A stretch of 62,444 nucleotides of DNA from a virus (IMGVR_UViG_3300043640_000318:1-62444); one strand, 5' to 3'; positions 14,925 through 53,171 are shown, counted from the first letter of the stretch. The notes: generated from the sequence alone by a model not told the origin. Numbers and translations are program-made.

Positions 14925-14997
14925 ATCTCGGTAGCTCAATTGGTAGAGCACCCGTCTCCAAAGCGGGTTGTTCCAGGTTCGAGTCCTGGCCGGGGTG
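14925..14997 (+). tRNA. trnW: tRNA-Trp(CCA)
   Basis: Cloverleaf; CCCGT-CTCCAAA-GCGGG; GGTTCGAGTCC. Confidence 0.9.
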
Positions 14998-15208
14998 CGT
15001 AGGAACAGGATCATGCCTATGCCCTCACGGGTACGCACCCTGCGATGGCCCAACCCTGAACGGCATGGGGGGCGAGCCATCGGCCTCTGGCCCGGAGGTG
15101 TCTAGAAAAACGGTCCTTGCGCCGACTCGCGAGGAGGGCACGGTAGGTCGATGGTCAGGGCGTGCACCTCCACAAGCGCACGCCAGCAGCTGCTCAGCGA
15201 TCTATATC

Positions 15209-15295
15209 AGTGCGGTAGCTCAATGTAGAGCCCTTATGGAGCCGGTGTGGACCGGTAGGCTACGGGAGATCCAGGTTCGTACCCTGGTCGCACGC
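15209..15295 (+). ncRNA. tRNA-like RNA with extended anticodon arm
   Basis: GTGCGG/TCGCAC acceptor, D-arm GCTCAATGTAGAGC, T-arm CCAGG-TTCGTAC-CCTGG; anticodon region about 35 nt, capped by CCGGT-GTGG-ACCGG. Confidence 0.65.
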
Positions 15296-15412
15296 GGTTG
15301 GTAGGTAACGCTCTTTCTGGACCCGGCGGATGTGCACTGAAACCGGGCGAGGAAGCAGTCGAACCCCGCCTTGATGTCGCTCGGTCGGCTGTTCGCAGAC
15401 TGGGATGTCATC

Positions 15413-15482
15413 AGCGTCATAGCTCAATGGGCAGAGCTCCCACCACAATGGGTGAACCCGGGTTCGAATCCCGGTGGCGCAC
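15413..15482 (+). ncRNA. tRNA-like RNA (Val CAC-like) with 6-nt anticodon loop
   Basis: GCGTCA/TGGCGC, D-arm GCTCAATGGGCAGAGC, CCCA-CCACAA-TGGG, T-arm CCGGG-TTCGAAT-CCCGG. Confidence 0.65.
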
Positions 15483-15603
15483 GGTTGGAAGGGCAAGAGC
15501 CCCTGCAAGGTCGGTGGAGGTGCACCGAACCCGGCGGCGGAGGGGAAGGAACCCGACCTAGGCATCATGGGCTCCTGCGCGGGGCGCAGAAGTTCATGGT
15601 GGC

Positions 15604-15674
15604 AGCGAGATAGCTCATCAGGTCAGAGCACCCTCGGAAGGGGGAGGTGCCGGGTTCGAGTCCCGGTCTCGCAC
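15604..15674 (+). ncRNA. tRNA-like RNA with GGAA tetraloop in place of the anticodon loop
   Basis: GCGAGA/TCTCGC, D-arm GCTCATCAGGTCAGAGC, CCCTC-GGAA-GGGGG, T-arm CCGGG-TTCGAGT-CCCGG. Confidence 0.65.
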
Positions 15675-15793
15675 GCAGGGACAAGCCCTTCGGGGATGTG
15701 TCCTTCTTGATCCGAACCTGGGTCGCCCTTGAGCGCTTCTGCTCTCTGGGGGGAGAGGTAGTGGCCGCTCGGGCGGCTCAGGTTCGGATGCAA

Positions 15794-15866
15794 GCCTTTT
15801 AGGCTCTCGTGGGAGAGCGCCCGGCTGAAAACCGGGAGTGGCCTGGTTCGACTCCAGGGAGGGGCA
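15794..15866 (+). tRNA. trnF: tRNA-Phe(GAA)
   Basis: CCCGG-CTGAAAA-CCGGG; T-arm CCTGG-TTCGACT-CCAGG; GU-rich acceptor stem. Confidence 0.82.
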
Positions 15867-16052
15867 CGGGGGTAGCGTTCACGGTCTCAGAAATCTGAGT
15901 CGTGCGCTCGAAAGGTACAGTATGCGAATCCGATCCTGGATCACTTGCTCGGCTCGTCCTAGGAAACAGGCCGGTCCAGCCCAGAGGAGGAAGGCGGTGC
16001 CGAGGCCTTAGTCAGGGACTGGCGACTACCCTGAGCCCGCCCGATTTGATCT

Positions 16053-16124
16053 GCTGCACTAGCTCAATGGATAGAGCACCGGTTTACGGAACCGGGTGTC
16101 TGGGTTCGACTCCTGGGTGTAGCG
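16053..16124 (+). tRNA. trnR: tRNA-Arg(ACG)
   Basis: Cloverleaf; CCGGT-TTACGGA-ACCGG. Confidence 0.9.
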
Positions 16125-16250
16125 CGAGAGCTAGGGCCATGATCCGGATCGCGGCCCTTGGACCAGTCGTCCGACCCTCCTCGTCATTCTAGATTCTGAC
16201 GCTGGCAGGGCGGCCCTGGAAGGTCTTGGGAAACCGAGCCGCTCTCCCAA

Positions 16251-16324
16251 TGTCTGGTAGCTCAGTTGGTCAGAGCGCCGTCCTGATAAGACGGAGGTCG
16301 CTGGTTCGAACCCAGCTCAGACAA
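16251..16324 (+). tRNA. trnI: tRNA-Ile(GAT)
   Basis: Cloverleaf; CCGTC-CTGATAA-GACGG. Confidence 0.92.
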
Positions 16325-16325
16325 C

Positions 16326-16397
16326 GGCGCGGTTTCTCGTCGGACGGGCTTCAGCCTGCAAAGCTGATTGACTCGGGTTCGACTCCCGGCTGCGCTT
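16326..16397 (+). tRNA. trnC: tRNA-Cys(GCA)
   Basis: TCAGC-CTGCAAA-GCTGA, GGCGCGG/CTGCGCT acceptor, U discriminator; atypical D-arm. Confidence 0.8.
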
Positions 16398-16501
16398 CGA
16401 CAAATAAATATCTTTGCTCGGATTAACCCCAGGATGTGCCCGTTAGCCTGGTCACTTGGTCCGAGCGTCGGCGGGGTGGCGCACGCCCGTGGTCGGCACA
16501 A

Positions 16502-16574
16502 GGGCCTGTAGCTCCAATGGAAGAGCGCCTCTTTTGCAAGGAGGAAGTTCTCGGTTCGAATCCGAGTGGGTCCA
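16502..16574 (+). tRNA. trnA: tRNA-Ala(TGC)
   Basis: CCTCT-TTTGCAA-GGAGG; G3:U70 identity pair present. Confidence 0.92.
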
Positions 16575-16598
16575 CGGCGACAGTGCGCACTGTCGCAA

Positions 16599-16698
16599 GT
16601 CGAGACATGATCCGGTTCGACTCCGGTCGTGGGAAGCAGTAAGGGTGGCCACCCGACCTGTAGAGGGTTCGATTCCCGATAGGCGTCCATGTCTCGAC
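16599..16698 (+). ncRNA. unknown 100-nt RNA with two T-loop hairpins
   Basis: Closing helix GTCGAGACATG/CATGTCTCGAC; CCGG-TTCGACT-CCGG and GGG-TTCGATT-CCC inside. Confidence 0.6.
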
Positions 16699-16701
16699 GT
16701 T

Positions 16702-16773
16702 GCCGTGTTGGTCTAGTGGAATGACGCCTGATTCTCAGTCAGGAGATCGCGGGTTCGATCCCCGCACACGGTA
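16702..16773 (+). tRNA. trnE: tRNA-Glu(CTC)
   Basis: Cloverleaf; CCTGA-TTCTCAG-TCAGG. Confidence 0.9.
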
Positions 16774-17243
16774 CGGCAGGAGTGCTCCAGAACCCTTACC
16801 TGGAGCTCTGGCTCATGCGAGCCGGGATGCGGAAGCGTACGCGTTGCGGAGAAACGCATCCCGGGGTGGCCTAGGCCGTAGTAGCGGCACCTGCACTCTT
16901 TTCTGAACGCCGCACCTTGACCGAAAGGCGATCATGCCCCCGCGCAACCCCTGCCCCCTGCGCTGTTCGGGAGATGACCCCTGCGGCCTCGGCAACGGTC
17001 ACACTGCCGAGTGTGCCTGCGGTAGCCCCATCGCCTGCGGCTGCGCGCCGCTCCTCCAGCCTGCTGAAGACTGACCTGCCTCAGTGCCCTCGCGCTGGCC
17101 TCGTAGGTGCGAGATACCGCCTGCGCGCTGGCCTGGTAAACGCGACACGGCTTAGCTGTAATGCCTGCGCATGGGCTTCGTGATGCGACGTCACATCGCA
17201 CGTACATGTGACTGCAACGCATGCGACAGATGTCGATGGACCA

Positions 17244-48216: not shown

Positions 48217-48244
48217 TTGACCGCCAAGGTTCCTGTGGTAGTGT
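48217..48244 (+). promoter_or_regulatory. promoter of Y RNA-Ro operon
   Basis: TTGACC-N16-TAGTGT with extended TG, 10 nt before Y RNA 1; CCAAGGTTCCT in spacer. Confidence 0.6.
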
Positions 48245-48254
48245 CGCTGACATC

Positions 48255-48342
48255 ACCTCCTCGGTGTGAACGGCAGACGGCTACTTCATTTCGATTAACT
48301 CCGAAACGCGAACGCCGTAGCCGGACTTGACCTCGGGGAGGT
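48255..48342 (+). ncRNA. Y RNA-like 1 (minimal)
   Basis: ACCTCCTCG/CGGGGAGGT closing stem; GGTGTGAA...CTACTTC...GACTTGACCTC. Confidence 0.75.
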
Positions 48343-48357
48343 ACAAAAACTTAAATT

Positions 48358-48433
48358 TCTCCGCTGGTGTGCATGTGACGGCTACTTCGATATGACGAAA
48401 AATGCGCCGTCGCGACTCTGATCTCAGCGGAGA
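48358..48433 (+). ncRNA. Y RNA-like 2 (minimal)
   Basis: TCTCCGCTG/CAGCGGAGA; GGTGTGCA...CTACTTC...GACTCTGATCTC. Confidence 0.75.
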
Positions 48434-48445
48434 CAAGCTTCAGCA

Positions 48446-48588
48446 CCTTCCCGGTGTGCAGATCACAGTTACTTCATTCGGAACTGATAGTCGCGGGTTC
48501 GAATCCCGTCGAGGGCTCCAGGGTCCTCGTAGCTCAGCCTGGTAGAGCGTCAGTCTTTGTACTGTGGTCGATTTTGATCTCGGGAGGG
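48446..48588 (+). ncRNA. yrlA: YrlA-type Y RNA with circularly permuted tRNA domain
   Basis: CCTTCCCG/CGGGAGGG; T-arm GCGGG-TTCGAAT-CCCGT, closed acceptor CGAGGGC..GTCCTCG, D-arm TAGCTCAGCCTGGTAGAGC; upstream of Ro60. Confidence 0.88.
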
Positions 48589-48602
48589 GACAACTTCAGA
48601 GC

Positions 48603-48732
48603 GTTCCTGGTGTGCAGGCGAGGGCTACTTCTTTCTGCAAAAAAGGATCTCCGGGTTCGACTCCCGGTCCAGCCCGTAAGGGTTGGGGCCAAGGCGGCGA
48701 TAGCTATCTCTCACCGACTTGACCTCAGGAAC
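48603..48732 (+). ncRNA. Y RNA-like 4 with T-arm and closed acceptor stem, degenerate D-arm
   Basis: GTTCCTG/CAGGAAC; CCGGG-TTCGACT-CCCGG; CCAGCCC-GTAA-GGGTTGG; shared motifs. Confidence 0.8.
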
Positions 48733-48743
48733 CCACTCTTGAC

Positions 48744-48778
48744 GAACTCCTCTCCCGTCCCCTCGGAGAGGAGTTTTT
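48744..48778 (+). terminator. terminator-like hairpin containing the Ro60 RBS
   Basis: GAACTCCTCTCC/GGAGAGGAGTTT followed by TT, ending 2 nt before ATG. Confidence 0.6.
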
Positions 48779-48779
48779 C

Positions 48780-50402
48780 ATGTCCAAGTTCAACCGCAAC
48801 GGCCCGAGCACCCGCCAGACCAACCCGGTGGTGAGCGTCAAGGCACCGCAGGCCCGTACCCACGGTGGCGCCCCGGCCTACGAGCGTGACGCCAAGGGCG
48901 AGCTGTTCATGCTCGCCATCAGCAACCTCGTGGGGGAGAAGACCTTCTACGAGAGCGCCGGTGAGCGGGACGACCGCTTCAGCGCGCTGGTCCACCAGGT
49001 CGCCCTCGACGACCCGAAGTGGCTGTTCAGCATGCTGAACTGGCTGCGCGGTGAGTCCAACATGCGCAGCGCGGCCCTGGTCGGCGCGGCCGAGATGGTC
49101 AAGGCACGGATCGACGCAGGTGTCAGCGGTAAGGACGCCCCGGAGGAAGGTGGCCGCAGCTACGACCGCATGGCCATCGACGCGGTCTGCCTGCGGGCGG
49201 ACGAGCCGGGTGAGCTGCTGGCCTACTGGATCGGCAAGTACGGCCGTCCGGTCCCGAAGCCGATCAAGCGTGGTCTCTCCGACGCTGCCAAGCGGCTCTA
49301 CAACGAGCGCAACCTCCTGAAGTACGACACCGCCACGAGCGCGTTCAGGTTCGGTGACGTCCTGGAGTTCGCCCGGCCGAAGCCGGTCGGCATCTCCCAG
49401 AGCAGGCTGTTCAAGTACGCCATCGAGAACCGGCACAAGCGCACCATCGACATGGTGGAGCTCGGCCTGCCGATGATCCAGGCGAACCACTTCCTGCGCA
49501 ACGCCGCCGCTCGTGACCCGAGGGCGCTGCTCGACTCCGACGCGCTGAAGGGCGCGGGGATGACCTGGGAGGACCTGCTGAGCCTGGCAGGCACCAAGGT
49601 GAGCAAGGCGGACCTGTGGGAGGCCATGGTCCCCGCCATGGGCTACATGGGCCTGCTGCGGAACCTGCGCAACTTCGATGAGGCGGGGATCTCCAACCAG
49701 GTCGTCAGGTACGTCGGCGGCCGTCTGGAGGACCCGGTGCAGGTCGCCGGATCCCGTCAGCTGCCGATGAGGTTCCTGTCGGCCTACCGGGCGGCTCCGA
49801 GCCTGAAGTGGGGTCCGTACCTGGAGGTCGCACTGGACGCGTGCCTGGGCAGCATCCCGGTCGTGAAGGGCCGCACGCTGGTCCTGATCGACACCTCGGC
49901 CTCCATGCAGGCCATGATGAGCGAGCGTTCCAAGCTCCAGATGTGGGACGCGGCGGTGGTCTTCGGGCTGGCACTGGCCCGCCGGTGTGAAAGCGCCGAC
50001 GTGGTCTCCTTCTCGGACAACTACTGGAACAGCAGCGAGGGCACCAAGGTCTTCCATCCGGCCAAGGGTGGCTCGCTGCTCAAAGACATCGACCGGTGGT
50101 CCCAGGACGGCTACAACATCTTCGGCGGGACCGAGACCGCCGGAGCGGTCAGGCGGCACTTCGCCGACCACGACCGGGTCATCATCCTCACCGACGAGCA
50201 GTCCACCAGCGGCAGTGATGTCGATGCCGCAGTCCCGGACAACAAGACCCTGATCACCTTCAACCTGGCTGGTTACAAGCGCGGCCACGCCCGTTCTGGC
50301 ACCGCTCACCGGATCACCATCGGTGGCCTGTCGGACGCCGGGTTCAAGCTGATCCCGATCCTGGAGAGCCGCTCCAAGGGCCTGTGGCCCTGGGAGCTGT
50401 AG
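48780..50402 (+). CDS. rsr: Ro60/Rsr TROVE-domain RNA-binding protein with vWA domain
   Basis: THGGAPAY, EKTFYE, LRGESNMRS, RADEPGE, LLKYD, MTWE, LLRNLRN, SRQLPMRF, LIDTSASM, GGTET, IILTDEQ. Confidence 0.95.
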   Translation: MSKFNRNGPSTRQTNPVVSVKAPQARTHGGAPAYERDAKGELFMLAISNLVGEKTFYESAGERDDRFSALVHQVALDDPKWLFSMLNWLRGESNMRSAALVGAAEMVKARIDAGVSGKDAPEEGGRSYDRMAIDAVCLRADEPGELLAYWIGKYGRPVPKPIKRGLSDAAKRLYNERNLLKYDTATSAFRFGDVLEFARPKPVGISQSRLFKYAIENRHKRTIDMVELGLPMIQANHFLRNAAARDPRALLDSDALKGAGMTWEDLLSLAGTKVSKADLWEAMVPAMGYMGLLRNLRNFDEAGISNQVVRYVGGRLEDPVQVAGSRQLPMRFLSAYRAAPSLKWGPYLEVALDACLGSIPVVKGRTLVLIDTSASMQAMMSERSKLQMWDAAVVFGLALARRCESADVVSFSDNYWNSSEGTKVFHPAKGGSLLKDIDRWSQDGYNIFGGTETAGAVRRHFADHDRVIILTDEQSTSGSDVDAAVPDNKTLITFNLAGYKRGHARSGTAHRITIGGLSDAGFKLIPILESRSKGLWPWEL

Positions 50403-50414
50403 CCCCCCGGTAGG

Positions 50415-50448
50415 AGCGCCCATCCTGTGTCCTGGGATGGGCGCTTTT
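50415..50448 (+). terminator. intrinsic terminator after Ro60
   Basis: AGCGCCCATCC/GGATGGGCGCT followed by TTT. Confidence 0.7.
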
Positions 50449-50517
50449 GCCATGCTTGGCGATGATCTATGCTATGCTGTGCCAAGCAAGTTGTTCTTCC
50501 CCCCGAGGAGCCGCAGC

Positions 50518-51696
50518 ATGACCATCCCGCTCACCGACCCTGTCGCTCGTGCCTCGGCCTACCTGGACAAGGTGATCCAGGACATGAAGGACGCCGAGCA
50601 CTTCTGGCTGAACGACCCCACCGGCGCCTTCTGCGCCAAGGTCTTCTTCGCCGCCGCCCGGATGGCCATCGACGACGACAAGCTCGATGTGCCCCACCCG
50701 GACCTCACCCAGGAGATGGTGAAGGACTTCCAGATCGCCATCAAGTGGATGAGCCCGCAGAACCGGCACGCCCTGGCGATGTTCACCCAGGTGGTCCAGA
50801 GCCGGGTGCTGTGGAGCAGGACCAAGATCCTGCACCCGATCGACGGAGCCCTGTGGGGCGAGCTGAAGGACATCGCCCGGGACGTCAAGCTGCCCGCAGA
50901 GCTCTTCACGAAGCTGCCCTACCCCGACCCCTTCGTCTACTTCCCCGAGCCGATCATCATCCCCCTCGACGAGCCCGGCCAATTCCAGAGGATCGAGGGT
51001 GTGTTCATCCACGGCCGCCGGGCCACCAATGCCCTCTTCCCGGACGGCCGTGGGATCGACGTCGGCTCGATGCACTGCTCGACCGCCAGCCCCATGGCCG
51101 TCGGGCTCGGCCTCTCGTTCGCCGGGTACGTCGAGTACGCCGACGGCTCGCCCCTGATGGTCCGGACCTTCCAGGACGTCTGCTGGACCCACACCTCGCT
51201 GATCCCCTCCGACGGCGGCACGCTGGGCGCGATGATCGAGGGGGCCGTCAAGAGGTTCAGCCGGGCCAAGGTGGACGGGTACGGGGTCAGCAGTGCGGCT
51301 GTGAGCGTCCCAGAGCTCTGCACGCAGGCTGTGAGCGCCCTGGTCTACCTCTGCTGCAAGAACGCCGACCTGACCCAGCTGCCGCCTCGTCAGGGCCGCT
51401 CACGCCGGGGCAGCAAGAGCAGCGCCCCCAAGCCCCCGAAGGTCATCAAGGTGGGCTACCGGGTGGGCGCCGAGCTGAAGGCCTACCACCGGCGGATCAG
51501 GAACGGGGAAAGCAGCCCGACCGGCCAGAAGATGGCGCCTCACGTGCGCCGTTCGCACCCGCACACCTTCCGCTGCGGGCCCGGCCGCAAGGACTTCGTC
51601 ATGTACTGGATGCACCCGATCATGGTGAACATGAACCTGGGCGCCAGCGTCACCACGGTCTCGAAGGTCAAAAGCAGCAAGCGGGCGAAGCGCTAG
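50518..51696 (+). CDS. hypothetical phage protein with basic PHxRRxH C-terminal motif
   Basis: ATG after GAGGAG; PHVRRSHPHTFRCGPGR....WMHPIMVN. Confidence 0.78.
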   Translation: MTIPLTDPVARASAYLDKVIQDMKDAEHFWLNDPTGAFCAKVFFAAARMAIDDDKLDVPHPDLTQEMVKDFQIAIKWMSPQNRHALAMFTQVVQSRVLWSRTKILHPIDGALWGELKDIARDVKLPAELFTKLPYPDPFVYFPEPIIIPLDEPGQFQRIEGVFIHGRRATNALFPDGRGIDVGSMHCSTASPMAVGLGLSFAGYVEYADGSPLMVRTFQDVCWTHTSLIPSDGGTLGAMIEGAVKRFSRAKVDGYGVSSAAVSVPELCTQAVSALVYLCCKNADLTQLPPRQGRSRRGSKSSAPKPPKVIKVGYRVGAELKAYHRRIRNGESSPTGQKMAPHVRRSHPHTFRCGPGRKDFVMYWMHPIMVNMNLGASVTTVSKVKSSKRAKR

Positions 51697-51869
51697 ATGT
51701 AGGAGTTGAACCTGGCCACGGGGACGTTGACGGTCTCCGAGGTCAGGCGCCGCACGATGTCGCCCACCTCAATCTGGGTCTGGGCGTTCAGCTCGCCGAT
51801 CGGCACCTCGCGCAGGTCGGCGACGTTCGACTTGACCTCTGCTGGCCGCTCAATGACCTCGGTGCTCAT
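51693..51869 (-). CDS. FxSxx-COOH (FxsA-like) RiPP precursor-like peptide
   Basis: 58 aa; S.VADLREVPIGEL leader, IVRRL, ends VARFNSYI-stop. Confidence 0.75.
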   Translation of the reverse strand: MSTEVIERPAEVKSNVADLREVPIGELNAQTQIEVGDIVRRLTSETVNVPVARFNSYI

Positions 51870-52124
51870 GGCCGGAGTGTACGCCGTGAATTCCGCCCTC
51901 GCCGGACCACGGCACCGCCCTGATCTGCGCTGTGCGGTAATGCCCGCTCGAATGGCTACCGAGGAAGCAGGGGCGGTCACTCGCGGGCTCCATCTCCCCA
52001 GCCGACTGGGGCGGGACTCCGCAGAGTGGCTCCCAGCATAACGCCAGCGCCCCGCCCTCAGAGTTAACTGTAAGGACGGGGCCGACGGAATCGAACCGCC
52101 TCCGGGCGCCCGGTGCAGAAACAG

Positions 52125-52160
52125 CGAACCCGCCCTGCGGTCACGGTCAGGGCGGGTTCG
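52125..52160 (-). terminator. terminator after major capsid gene
   Basis: CGAACCCGCCCTG/CAGGGCGGGTTCG 13-bp stem followed by CTGTTTC. Confidence 0.7.
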
Positions 52161-52178
52161 TCGATCAGTCTACGAGTA

Positions 52179-53171
52179 CTACGACTTGGTGATGGTCGCC
52201 AGGCCGCGTGGGTTCAGGATGGCCATGGTCACCATCTCGTCGAACACCCAGCCCTTCCAGAACGCCTCGACGTGGTGGTTCTCCTCCACATCGAGGGAGT
52301 ACAGGATCGGGAAGACACCCAGGAAGTTGGGCTCCGGCGTCAGGAACACCTTGCTCTGCGGCACGATGATCGAGCGCTGGATCTGGAACTCGCCGAAGCT
52401 GGTGATGGTCTCACCGGCGACGACTCGGTCCTTGAAGGCCCAGCCGGTGGCGTTGATGTCCCACCGGTAGAGGTCCCGGTAGTCGAACGGGTTGATCAGG
52501 ATCCGGGCCGACTGGAGCTCGTGCAGGTCGGTCATCGAGACGGCCGAGTACAGCGAGCCCGGGGTCAGGTAGCCCGAGGCCTCGGTGATGTTGTGGTTCG
52601 GGGTGACCGTGTGGTCCGGCCGGGAGGCGTAGTCGGTGACCGCAGCCTGGAGCAGGACCAGCAGACGGGAGTCCTCTTGCTTGAGGATGGCCTGCTTGGT
52701 CTCGTCCTGGGCCTGCTCGACCGCGTTGATGCGCAGGTAGAACAGGTCCTCCTTGCGGATCGCCGGGCGCGAGGCGATGCGCCAGAAGCGCACCGGGACG
52801 CGCTTGCCTTCGAACGGTGTCACACGGACTTCGCCCTCGGTGCCGGACATGAGATATGCCTGGCCGAGGTCGTCCCAGACGTCGTACTCGACGGGGGTAC
52901 CCGGGGTCACCGGGTCCTCGACGAGCACGTTCCGGGTGATGCCCTGGTAACGGAGCTTCAGCTGGATCGGGCCGACCATGCCGACGCCCAGGCGCCGGAA
53001 GCCGCTGACGTCATCCGAGAGGATGAGCGCCATCTTGCGGACCTTGTCGGTGTGCGCGAGAGGCCCACCACTGGCCTGCTTGCGCTCGATCTGAGCGACA
53101 TAGTCATCGCTTTTCTTGGCGACGCGTGCCCTGAGCCCACCACCGGGCGCGAGGGTCATCTGCTGCGACAT
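52179..53171 (-). CDS. major capsid protein
   Basis: MVGPIQLKLRYQGITRNVLVED, YDVWDDLGQAY, KQEDSRL, GWVFDEMV...ILNPRG (Bxz1-like capsid by recollection). Confidence 0.9.
   Translation of the reverse strand: MSQQMTLAPGGGLRARVAKKSDDYVAQIERKQASGGPLAHTDKVRKMALILSDDVSGFRRLGVGMVGPIQLKLRYQGITRNVLVEDPVTPGTPVEYDVWDDLGQAYLMSGTEGEVRVTPFEGKRVPVRFWRIASRPAIRKEDLFYLRINAVEQAQDETKQAILKQEDSRLLVLLQAAVTDYASRPDHTVTPNHNITEASGYLTPGSLYSAVSMTDLHELQSARILINPFDYRDLYRWDINATGWAFKDRVVAGETITSFGEFQIQRSIIVPQSKVFLTPEPNFLGVFPILYSLDVEENHHVEAFWKGWVFDEMVTMAILNPRGLATITKS

Follow-up and report, generated by a model that had tools for sequence, protein, structure and literature searches.

The linear viral record IMGVR_UViG_3300043640_000318:1-62444 of IMG/VR, analysed here over its whole length of 62,444 nt and referred to as the window, carries on its minus strand a small gene (51693-51869) which, judging by profile and alignment comparisons, appears to encode a divergent homolog of the FxsA precursors. 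These triceptide precursors (TIGR04268, PF27839), which end in an FxSxx-COOH motif, are the substrates of FxsB-family radical S-adenosylmethionine (SAM)/SPASM cyclophane synthases. The window peptide lies outside the boundary of the curated family model, and it is called 'FxsA-like' here and not a certified member. Its gene is apparently an orphan, i.e., it stands without the enzymes that would mature its product, and the phage that bears it probably feeds a look-alike peptide into the Fxs system of its host. As the best explanation overall, to which we give an even chance, we propose an orphan FxsA-like peptide that would be matured by the host and would engage a conflict system linked to the host's Fxs genes.

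By codon-position G+C content the peptide gene looks coding. Its values (0.61/0.37/0.92) compare with 0.58-0.68/0.41-0.54/0.86-0.93 in six long genes of the window, and both the antisense and the shifted frames at this place are unlike those long genes. An original prediction, made by a model that saw only the DNA, had noted an open reading frame (ORF) of 58 amino acids with a leader-like DLREVPIGEL segment and a C-terminal VARFNSYI; translation confirmed all of this, placing the segment at residues 18-27 and the second motif in the last eight residues. The stop codon follows directly after F54-N55-S56-Y57-I58-COOH, giving the F-x-S-x-x ending of the family. Such an ending is not common background: the window and 80 related loci (the best 80 of 194 relatives of the window's capsid protein) contain 687 other coding-like frames of 40 amino acids or more, the peptide's own stop-to-stop frame excluded, and not one of them ends in F.S... 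A longer reading of 95 amino acids from a GTG at 51980, which is preceded by a Shine-Dalgarno (SD)-like GGAG, was rejected because the 37 codons that it adds are not coding-like (0.62/0.78/0.65) and because its length is outside the size range of the family.

Family members were sought in viral contigs with a degenerate DNA motif for F-N-S-x-I-stop, taken from the end of the peptide gene itself, which gave at least 118 loci. Among the matches listed, 65 frames ended at a motif match; most were junk, and four were small coding-like ORFs of 54-60 amino acids with acidic leaders. Scored with TIGR04268 (44 positions, cut-off 28 bits), two of these exceeded the cut-off (L113, 28.3 bits; L167, 29.0 bits), L150 reached 13.1 bits and L161 gave no match. 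Used as queries, L113 and L167 led to 18 and 3 further proteins, 15 of which carry a precomputed PF27839 label. One of the 21 is from an Actinomadura genome and the remainder are from metagenomes, with lengths of 44-63 amino acids. These 21 proteins made up our family profile, from which the window peptide was left out.

This profile recovers the window peptide. With filters off and 1088 six-frame ORFs of the window as targets, the hidden Markov model ranked the peptide first at 23.1 bits (E 3.4e-6), the runner-up reaching 7.6 bits, and a HMMER search of the record with the 21-protein alignment gave the peptide as its sole match (24.7 bits, E 1.6e-6). Scored alone, the peptide reached 26.5 bits, which none of 5000 shuffles equalled. 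HHalign of the peptide against the family alignment returned a probability of 96.7% over 45 columns (E 3.8e-10), and BLASTP against the family protein P0013 found 21 of 49 residues identical. The leader was then considered separately from the core: with the last 5, 8 or 12 residues cut from both profile and target, the peptide still scored 13.2, 11.8 and 11.3 bits (E 0.0038, 0.010 and 0.014), ranking first among the 1088 ORFs each time, and no leader shuffle out of 5000 reached the score. Feature searches of the ESM Atlas, taken as a lead only, point the same way. The top three clusters for the whole peptide are all FxSxx-COOH (0.86, 0.85 and 0.85, with 178-184 of 256 features shared), FxSxx-COOH clusters are again on top when residues 1-45 alone are used, and clusters carrying PF27839 are the nearest look-alikes (0.85-0.86).

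Where the family consensus is ...DLRDLTLDELA.D.EAA.IVARLTRK...SEPVRVAAFNS[FY]I, the window peptide reads ...ADLREVPIGELNAQTQIEVGDIVRRLTSETVNVPVARFNSYI. The two are alike in size (58 against 44-63 amino acids), in an acidic leader with a D-L-R-x...E-L...I-V-x-R-L-T pattern, and in a C-terminal V-x-V-A-x-F-N-S-[FY]-I core in which the cross-linkable Phe and Ser are both present; of the nine family columns that are invariant, seven are unchanged here, Phe, Ser and the terminal Ile among them. The peptide differs from FxsA precursors in a two-residue insertion in the leader, in a change from A to R before Phe and in the altered E-P before the core. It also differs in being phage-encoded, with no FxsB, HExxH, TIR or NTPase-TPR gene beside it, and in falling below reporting level on TIGR04268.

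Several results weigh against this assignment and against the reading built upon it. The original prediction had proposed a search with the FxSxx-COOH family model as a check, and had listed the lack of a match among its own grounds for refutation; TIGR04268 gave no match to the peptide at E<=10, either by hmmscan or in a six-frame search of the record. Nor did the SjiA-type model NF040585 or the NCBIfam and Pfam scans as a whole at the same threshold, the local Pfam being without PF27839. Direct searches were equally empty. An exhaustive phmmer search of 1.84 billion representative proteins returned the query only, as did a word-indexed search; tblastn against GenBank phages and scans of IMG/VR viral contigs and GTDB genome contigs gave no useful match, nor did PDB sequences or, at loose thresholds, PHROGs and PADLOC, and the plasmid search gave one chance match (E 3). 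There is no homolog of the peptide in the 80 related loci, nor in the full records behind 48 of them, a related Streptomyces 'plasmid' and phage Myrna. With no significant homolog in any collection, the peptide is a singleton on which selection is not measurable. Because the family was reached through the peptide's own C-terminal DNA pattern, the match in the last five residues holds by construction, and the leader tests, modest at 11-13 bits and E 0.004-0.014 within the window, are the only independent ones. Two of the nine invariant and four of the eight near-invariant family columns are changed in the peptide. Its ATG lacks an SD-like motif, as is also true of 8 of 31 reference genes. Finally, CheckV puts the completeness of the record at ~40%, leaving ~60% of the genome unseen.

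The miss by TIGR04268 is explained by the weak grip of this model on the nearest subfamily, in which all 14 members tested match and only two reach 28 bits, the other 12 scoring 10.4-20.7 bits. The family assignment made in the original prediction is therefore upheld by the 21-protein profile, by HHalign and by the leader, and is not upheld by TIGR04268. An unrelated small phage protein that ends in F-x-S-x-x by chance would suit the silence of the curated models and the lack of a significant database homolog, and by an estimate from residue frequencies roughly 0.2% of ORFs would have an F at -5 together with an S at -3. Such a look-alike would not account for a leader that ranks first on its own and is matched by no shuffle, for the HHalign probability, for the lack of this ending in the 687 other frames, or for the family indicated by the ESM features of residues 1-45, and we consider it very improbable.

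That the gene stands apart from its enzymes is suggested by searches of the phage and its relatives. Six-frame searches of the 62-kb record with FxsB (TIGR04269) and radical SAM (PF04055) models found nothing, the PF04055 control being positive in 14 of 14 genomes, and Pfam scans of 51 window ORFs found no radical SAM, TIR, TPR or NB-ARC domain; the earlier observation that the window holds no radical SAM gene thus stands. If a maturase of the FxsB type were encoded in the unseen part of the genome, the peptide would belong to a self-contained phage RiPP (ribosomally synthesised and post-translationally modified peptide) and would not be an orphan. The small visible fraction leaves room for this, but FxsB is over the cut-off in none of five complete relatives of 155-166 kb (the single match scored 10 bits), and the neighbours of the peptide gene are the capsid gene and a gene matching phrog_6160. 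We regard a self-contained system as improbable. The claim of orphan status is thus borne out over the visible 62 kb and in the five complete relatives, and is unproven for the ~60% of the genome that is unseen.

Orphan genes of the FxsA-like kind are also seen elsewhere among phage contigs. FxsB is absent from all four further viral contigs with small FxSxx-ending ORFs, whose completeness is 100, 98, 83 and 71%. Four loci of the FxsA subfamily have enough context to show their neighbours. One of them (L230) is a complete phage with direct terminal repeats (DTR) and has its subfamily gene near a CHAP endolysin gene. In three metagenome contigs the subfamily gene occupies the same slot (L233:2300-2458, L234:6001-6105 and L235:768-872), with the lysis-region genes (endolysin, phrog_19005 and phrog_10742) to one side of it and FtsK-like, excisionase and integrase genes to the other; morons of temperate actinophages or integrative elements typically lie in such a place, close to the attachment end. 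There is no radical SAM gene in the flanks (<=6 kb) of any of these four loci. Members of this mostly phage-borne subfamily have strongly conserved leaders, which is in keeping with a maturase that still recognises them.

This phage- or integrative-element-borne subfamily (P0002-P0019; L113/L230, L233-L235) contains the nearest relatives of the window peptide, at 32-43% identity to individual family members, and resembles it in lying among phage genes without a radical SAM neighbour. Its members are 50-70% identical to one another, whereas the window copy is a divergent singleton and the most divergent orphan FxsA-like example among those compared here. Where the loci give enough context, the subfamily genes are near lysis and integration genes in temperate-type contexts or a 60-kb DTR phage; the window copy, in contrast, lies behind the capsid gene of a large lytic-type myovirus. 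SjiA-type FXSXX-COOH peptides share the same class of C-terminal motif, and L167 and P0021 match their model NF040585 weakly (19.2 and 18.1 bits), unlike the window peptide. Two of the small ORFs from the motif search, L150:136-318(+) ending in AAFNSAI and L161:154-318(+) ending in VARFNSSI, were missed by the family profile at E<=0.01. FxSxx-ending phage peptides of divergent sequence may often go unnoticed. The window copy also shows that divergent versions from phages escape the curated family model, so that counts of such genes are probably too low.

Within its own lineage the window gene is alone. TIGR04268 is over its cut-off in none of 50 related records, the best score (17.7 bits) falling, by coordinate mapping, inside a cement-protein gene. 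At E<=0.01 the family profile found nothing in 46 relatives, the Streptomyces 'plasmid' and phage Myrna, a search that also missed L150 and L161, so that very divergent copies could escape it. Eight large Streptomyces and Kitasatospora plasmids (8.4 Mb in total) held no TIGR04268 match over the cut-off. The 16-bit TIGR04268 matches in NZ_CP109047.1, which have neither a small FxSxx ORF nor fxs neighbours, were set aside as noise. As no homolog was found in relatives, the gene is a lineage-specific acquisition.

A gene acquired in this way might be a true FxsA homolog and yet a mere passenger, brought horizontally into the interval downstream of the capsid gene and having no role or a decaying one. 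Its uniqueness among the 80 related loci and the 50 related records, its location in an interval that varies between relatives, the missing SD-like motif and its divergence at invariant and near-invariant columns are all in keeping with this. Set against them are an intact ORF with fully phage-like codon-position G+C, the retention of Phe, Ser and the terminal Ile of the core, and the recurrence of well-conserved orphan FxsA-like genes on other phage contigs, which favours a function under selection in phages at large. We regard a passenger as unlikely, and as the foremost of the alternatives considered.

The replicon is a contractile-tailed phage with myovirus structural genes: PHROGs and Pfam identify sheath and baseplate proteins, a tape-measure-like protein, major head and cement proteins, helicases, a 5'-3' exonuclease and an endolysin. 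Its capsid protein shares 61% identity with those of Mycobacterium cluster C (Bxz1-type) myoviruses and 78% with the one encoded by a circular 'plasmid' of 154 kb from a Streptomyces isolated from soil. On viral contigs it has 194 relatives, the best 80 of them at 83-91% identity, and the longest contigs measure 155-166 kb. We describe the phage as an actinobacterial myovirus from soil that is Bxz1/cluster C-like, of lytic type and about 155-166 kb in size. Given these capsid matches, the host is taken to be an actinobacterium, with a Streptomyces-like organism as the best clue. The 'plasmid' in question (NZ_CP041653.1, pRLB1-9.1 of Streptomyces sp. RLB1-9; loci L096 and L109) is a circle of 154,158 bp that encodes, besides its HK97-fold capsid protein, an SNF2-type helicase 48% identical to the window's; it has the look of a Bxz1-like myovirus whose genome was deposited under the label of plasmid, and it gives the best clue to the host range of the lineage. 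One soil DNA sequencing run contains 98% of the sequence words of the stretch and may be its source; no RNA run is listed as containing it.

Table 1. Positions of the peptide gene, its parts and its surroundings in the window.
Feature	Position	Strand	Evidence or content
58-amino-acid FxsA-like precursor gene	51693..51869	-	ATG 51867-51869, stop TAG 51693-51695; translation, coding-like G+C, family profile, HHalign
Core motif F54-N55-S56-Y57-I58-COOH	51696..51710	-	F, S and terminal I invariant in family alignment, kept here
Leader region conserved with family, residues 17-44, ADLREVPIGELNAQTQIEVGDIVRRLTS	51738..51821	-	Leader-only profile scores and alignments
Structured spacer of 309 nt, capsid stop to peptide ATG	51870..52178	-	Minimum free energy -158.2 kcal/mol, z -2.73
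Terminator-like hairpin, ~13-bp G+C-rich stem, 10-nt loop, then GCUGUUUCUG	52125..52160	-	19 nt past capsid stop codon
Major head protein gene	52179..53171	-	phrog_2522, E 7.5e-100; directly upstream of peptide gene, same strand
Gene of 419 amino acids, convergent with peptide gene, stop codons overlapping	50437-51696	+	Only the C-terminal ~110 amino acids match phrog_6160 (unknown function)
Variable accessory island, capsid gene to next conserved structural gene	48228..52178	.	Contains Y RNA-like element, Ro60/TROVE gene, phrog_6160 gene, peptide gene

The interval downstream of the capsid gene (Table 1) behaves as a hotspot for accessory genes, its length in the 80 relatives ranging from ~140 bp to several kb and its content differing between them. 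Homologs of Ro60, of the phrog_6160 gene and of the peptide are found in none of the 80 within the loci examined. The phrog_6160 gene, which has no Pfam or PADLOC match and no relatives on viral contigs, follows a Ro60/TROVE-vWA gene at 48780-50402(+). An Rfam match to the Y RNA-like YrlA (RF02553) was seen ~230 nt upstream of this TROVE/Ro60-vWA gene, at 48485-48552(+); it scores 43.6 bits (E 1.5e-7), short of the gathering score of 69, and spans the tRNA-like domain (model positions 23-85 of 114). The phage thus seems to carry a Ro60-Y RNA module. A genome scan with the Ro60 protein returned nothing. Elsewhere in the window there is a tRNA array at 14925-16774(+) with nine ARAGORN calls, two of them having anticodon loops that could not be assigned (15413-15482 and 15604-15674).

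The spacer between the capsid and peptide genes would form the 5' leader of the peptide mRNA if transcription reads through. No sigma-70-like promoter or canonical terminator was called in it by a scan with a hairpin loop limit of 8; the terminator-like hairpin close to the capsid gene is absent from that scan because its loop is longer than this limit. The U-tract after this strong hairpin is weak. The spacer has no DNA match in the 80 related loci. It also contains a tRNA T-arm-like hairpin, GGCGG-UUCGAUU-CCGUC, at 52085-52115(-), followed by a perfect 12-bp hairpin. The idea that the GGUUCGAUUCC hairpin of the spacer belongs to a tRNA or to a second Y RNA was dropped, neither ARAGORN nor Rfam having called it.

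Both the chemistry of this peptide family and its association with conflict systems are in print. MscB, the characterised enzyme of the FxsB family (IPR026335), links C4 of Phe to the beta carbon of Ser in the F-x-S motif, as described in PMC11002830, the primary paper being Nguyen et al. 2020. In multicellular actinobacteria FxSxx peptides accompany vWA-TPR and AP-ATPase-TIR conflict systems (PMC7159879, section 24), which supports the link to NTPase and TIR-like proteins that the original prediction had stated. The peptide was predicted there to be a toxin or an amplifying signal with a small, rapidly diverging precursor (Kaur, Burroughs, Iyer, Aravind 2020, PMC7159879). The HExxH partner was read as a peptidase in PMC7159879, and later appears as an alpha-ketoglutarate (KG)-HExxH hydroxylase domain in the title of Morishita 2024, as cited in PMC12912966. 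An FxSxx-type peptide such as the window has is the small, fast-diverging component in the peptide-processing modules of these VMAP-ternary conflict systems (PMC7159879); the difference is that here the peptide is found alone, and on the virus side of the conflict.

The position of the peptide gene behind the capsid gene suggests late co-expression, in which the gene would be transcribed late, by read-through from the capsid operon past the hairpin. With no maturase from the phage, the peptide would depend on the radical SAM/SPASM enzyme FxsB of the host, which would recognise its leader and join C4 of Phe54 to C-beta of Ser56. Since the family-type leader and the cross-linked residues are kept, recognition and cyclisation by a host enzyme seem the most likely fate. 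The resulting look-alike of the host FxsA product would engage the Fxs-linked NTPase/TPR/TIR conflict system of the host, competing with the host peptide or imitating it at its receptor, and would most likely act as an antagonist or competing substrate that blunts the system. Some TPR domains read free C-termini, as PEX5 does with PTS1 and Hop with EEVD, and by analogy the TPR protein of the fxs locus would be the most likely receptor. That a phage mimic would titrate or hijack a host Fxs system, as originally suggested, is plausible.

The same homology evidence would also serve a peptide that is never cyclised and acts as a decoy, one that would keep the host system short of its own mature peptide by binding to the leader site of FxsB, to the HExxH partner or to the TPR receptor. 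The changed columns by the core, i.e., A to R before Phe and the lost E-P, could make a poor substrate and a good binder, but Phe and Ser are both kept, which a pure binder would not need. The data do not separate this decoy from a modified mimic, and we hold the decoy to be distinctly unlikely. Returning to the host-matured peptide, a more specific version can be put forward tentatively, at less than even prospects. Orphan FxsA-like precursors would be a recurrent, independently acquired counter-measure of phages, in which host FxsB matures an altered copy of the host's immune signal peptide. This copy would block the NTPase/TPR/TIR suicide system normally armed by the host peptide, or would discharge it too early. 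In the window phage the antidote, co-transcribed with the capsid gene, would be made along with the late structural proteins, which such sensors are likely to detect.

No published description of phage-borne FxSxx precursors was found in the literature searched, partly by abstracts. The peptide family and the Phe-Ser cyclophane chemistry were already known, and it is the orphan occurrence on the virus side that is new. The chemistry of FxSxx-COOH peptides has been characterised and their biology has not, the sole proposed role, as a signal or toxin in NTPase/TIR systems, coming from gene-neighbourhood analysis. Phages encoding the precursor and none of its enzymes offer a direct genetic handle on the signal or toxin hypothesis. 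If the phage peptide alters the outcome of infection on fxs+ hosts, Fxs would be shown to be antiviral and a new form of counter-defence, a peptide mimic matured by the host, would be established. If the proposed mechanism is true, a RiPP precursor that the host matures would for the first time be seen to serve as an anti-defence protein.

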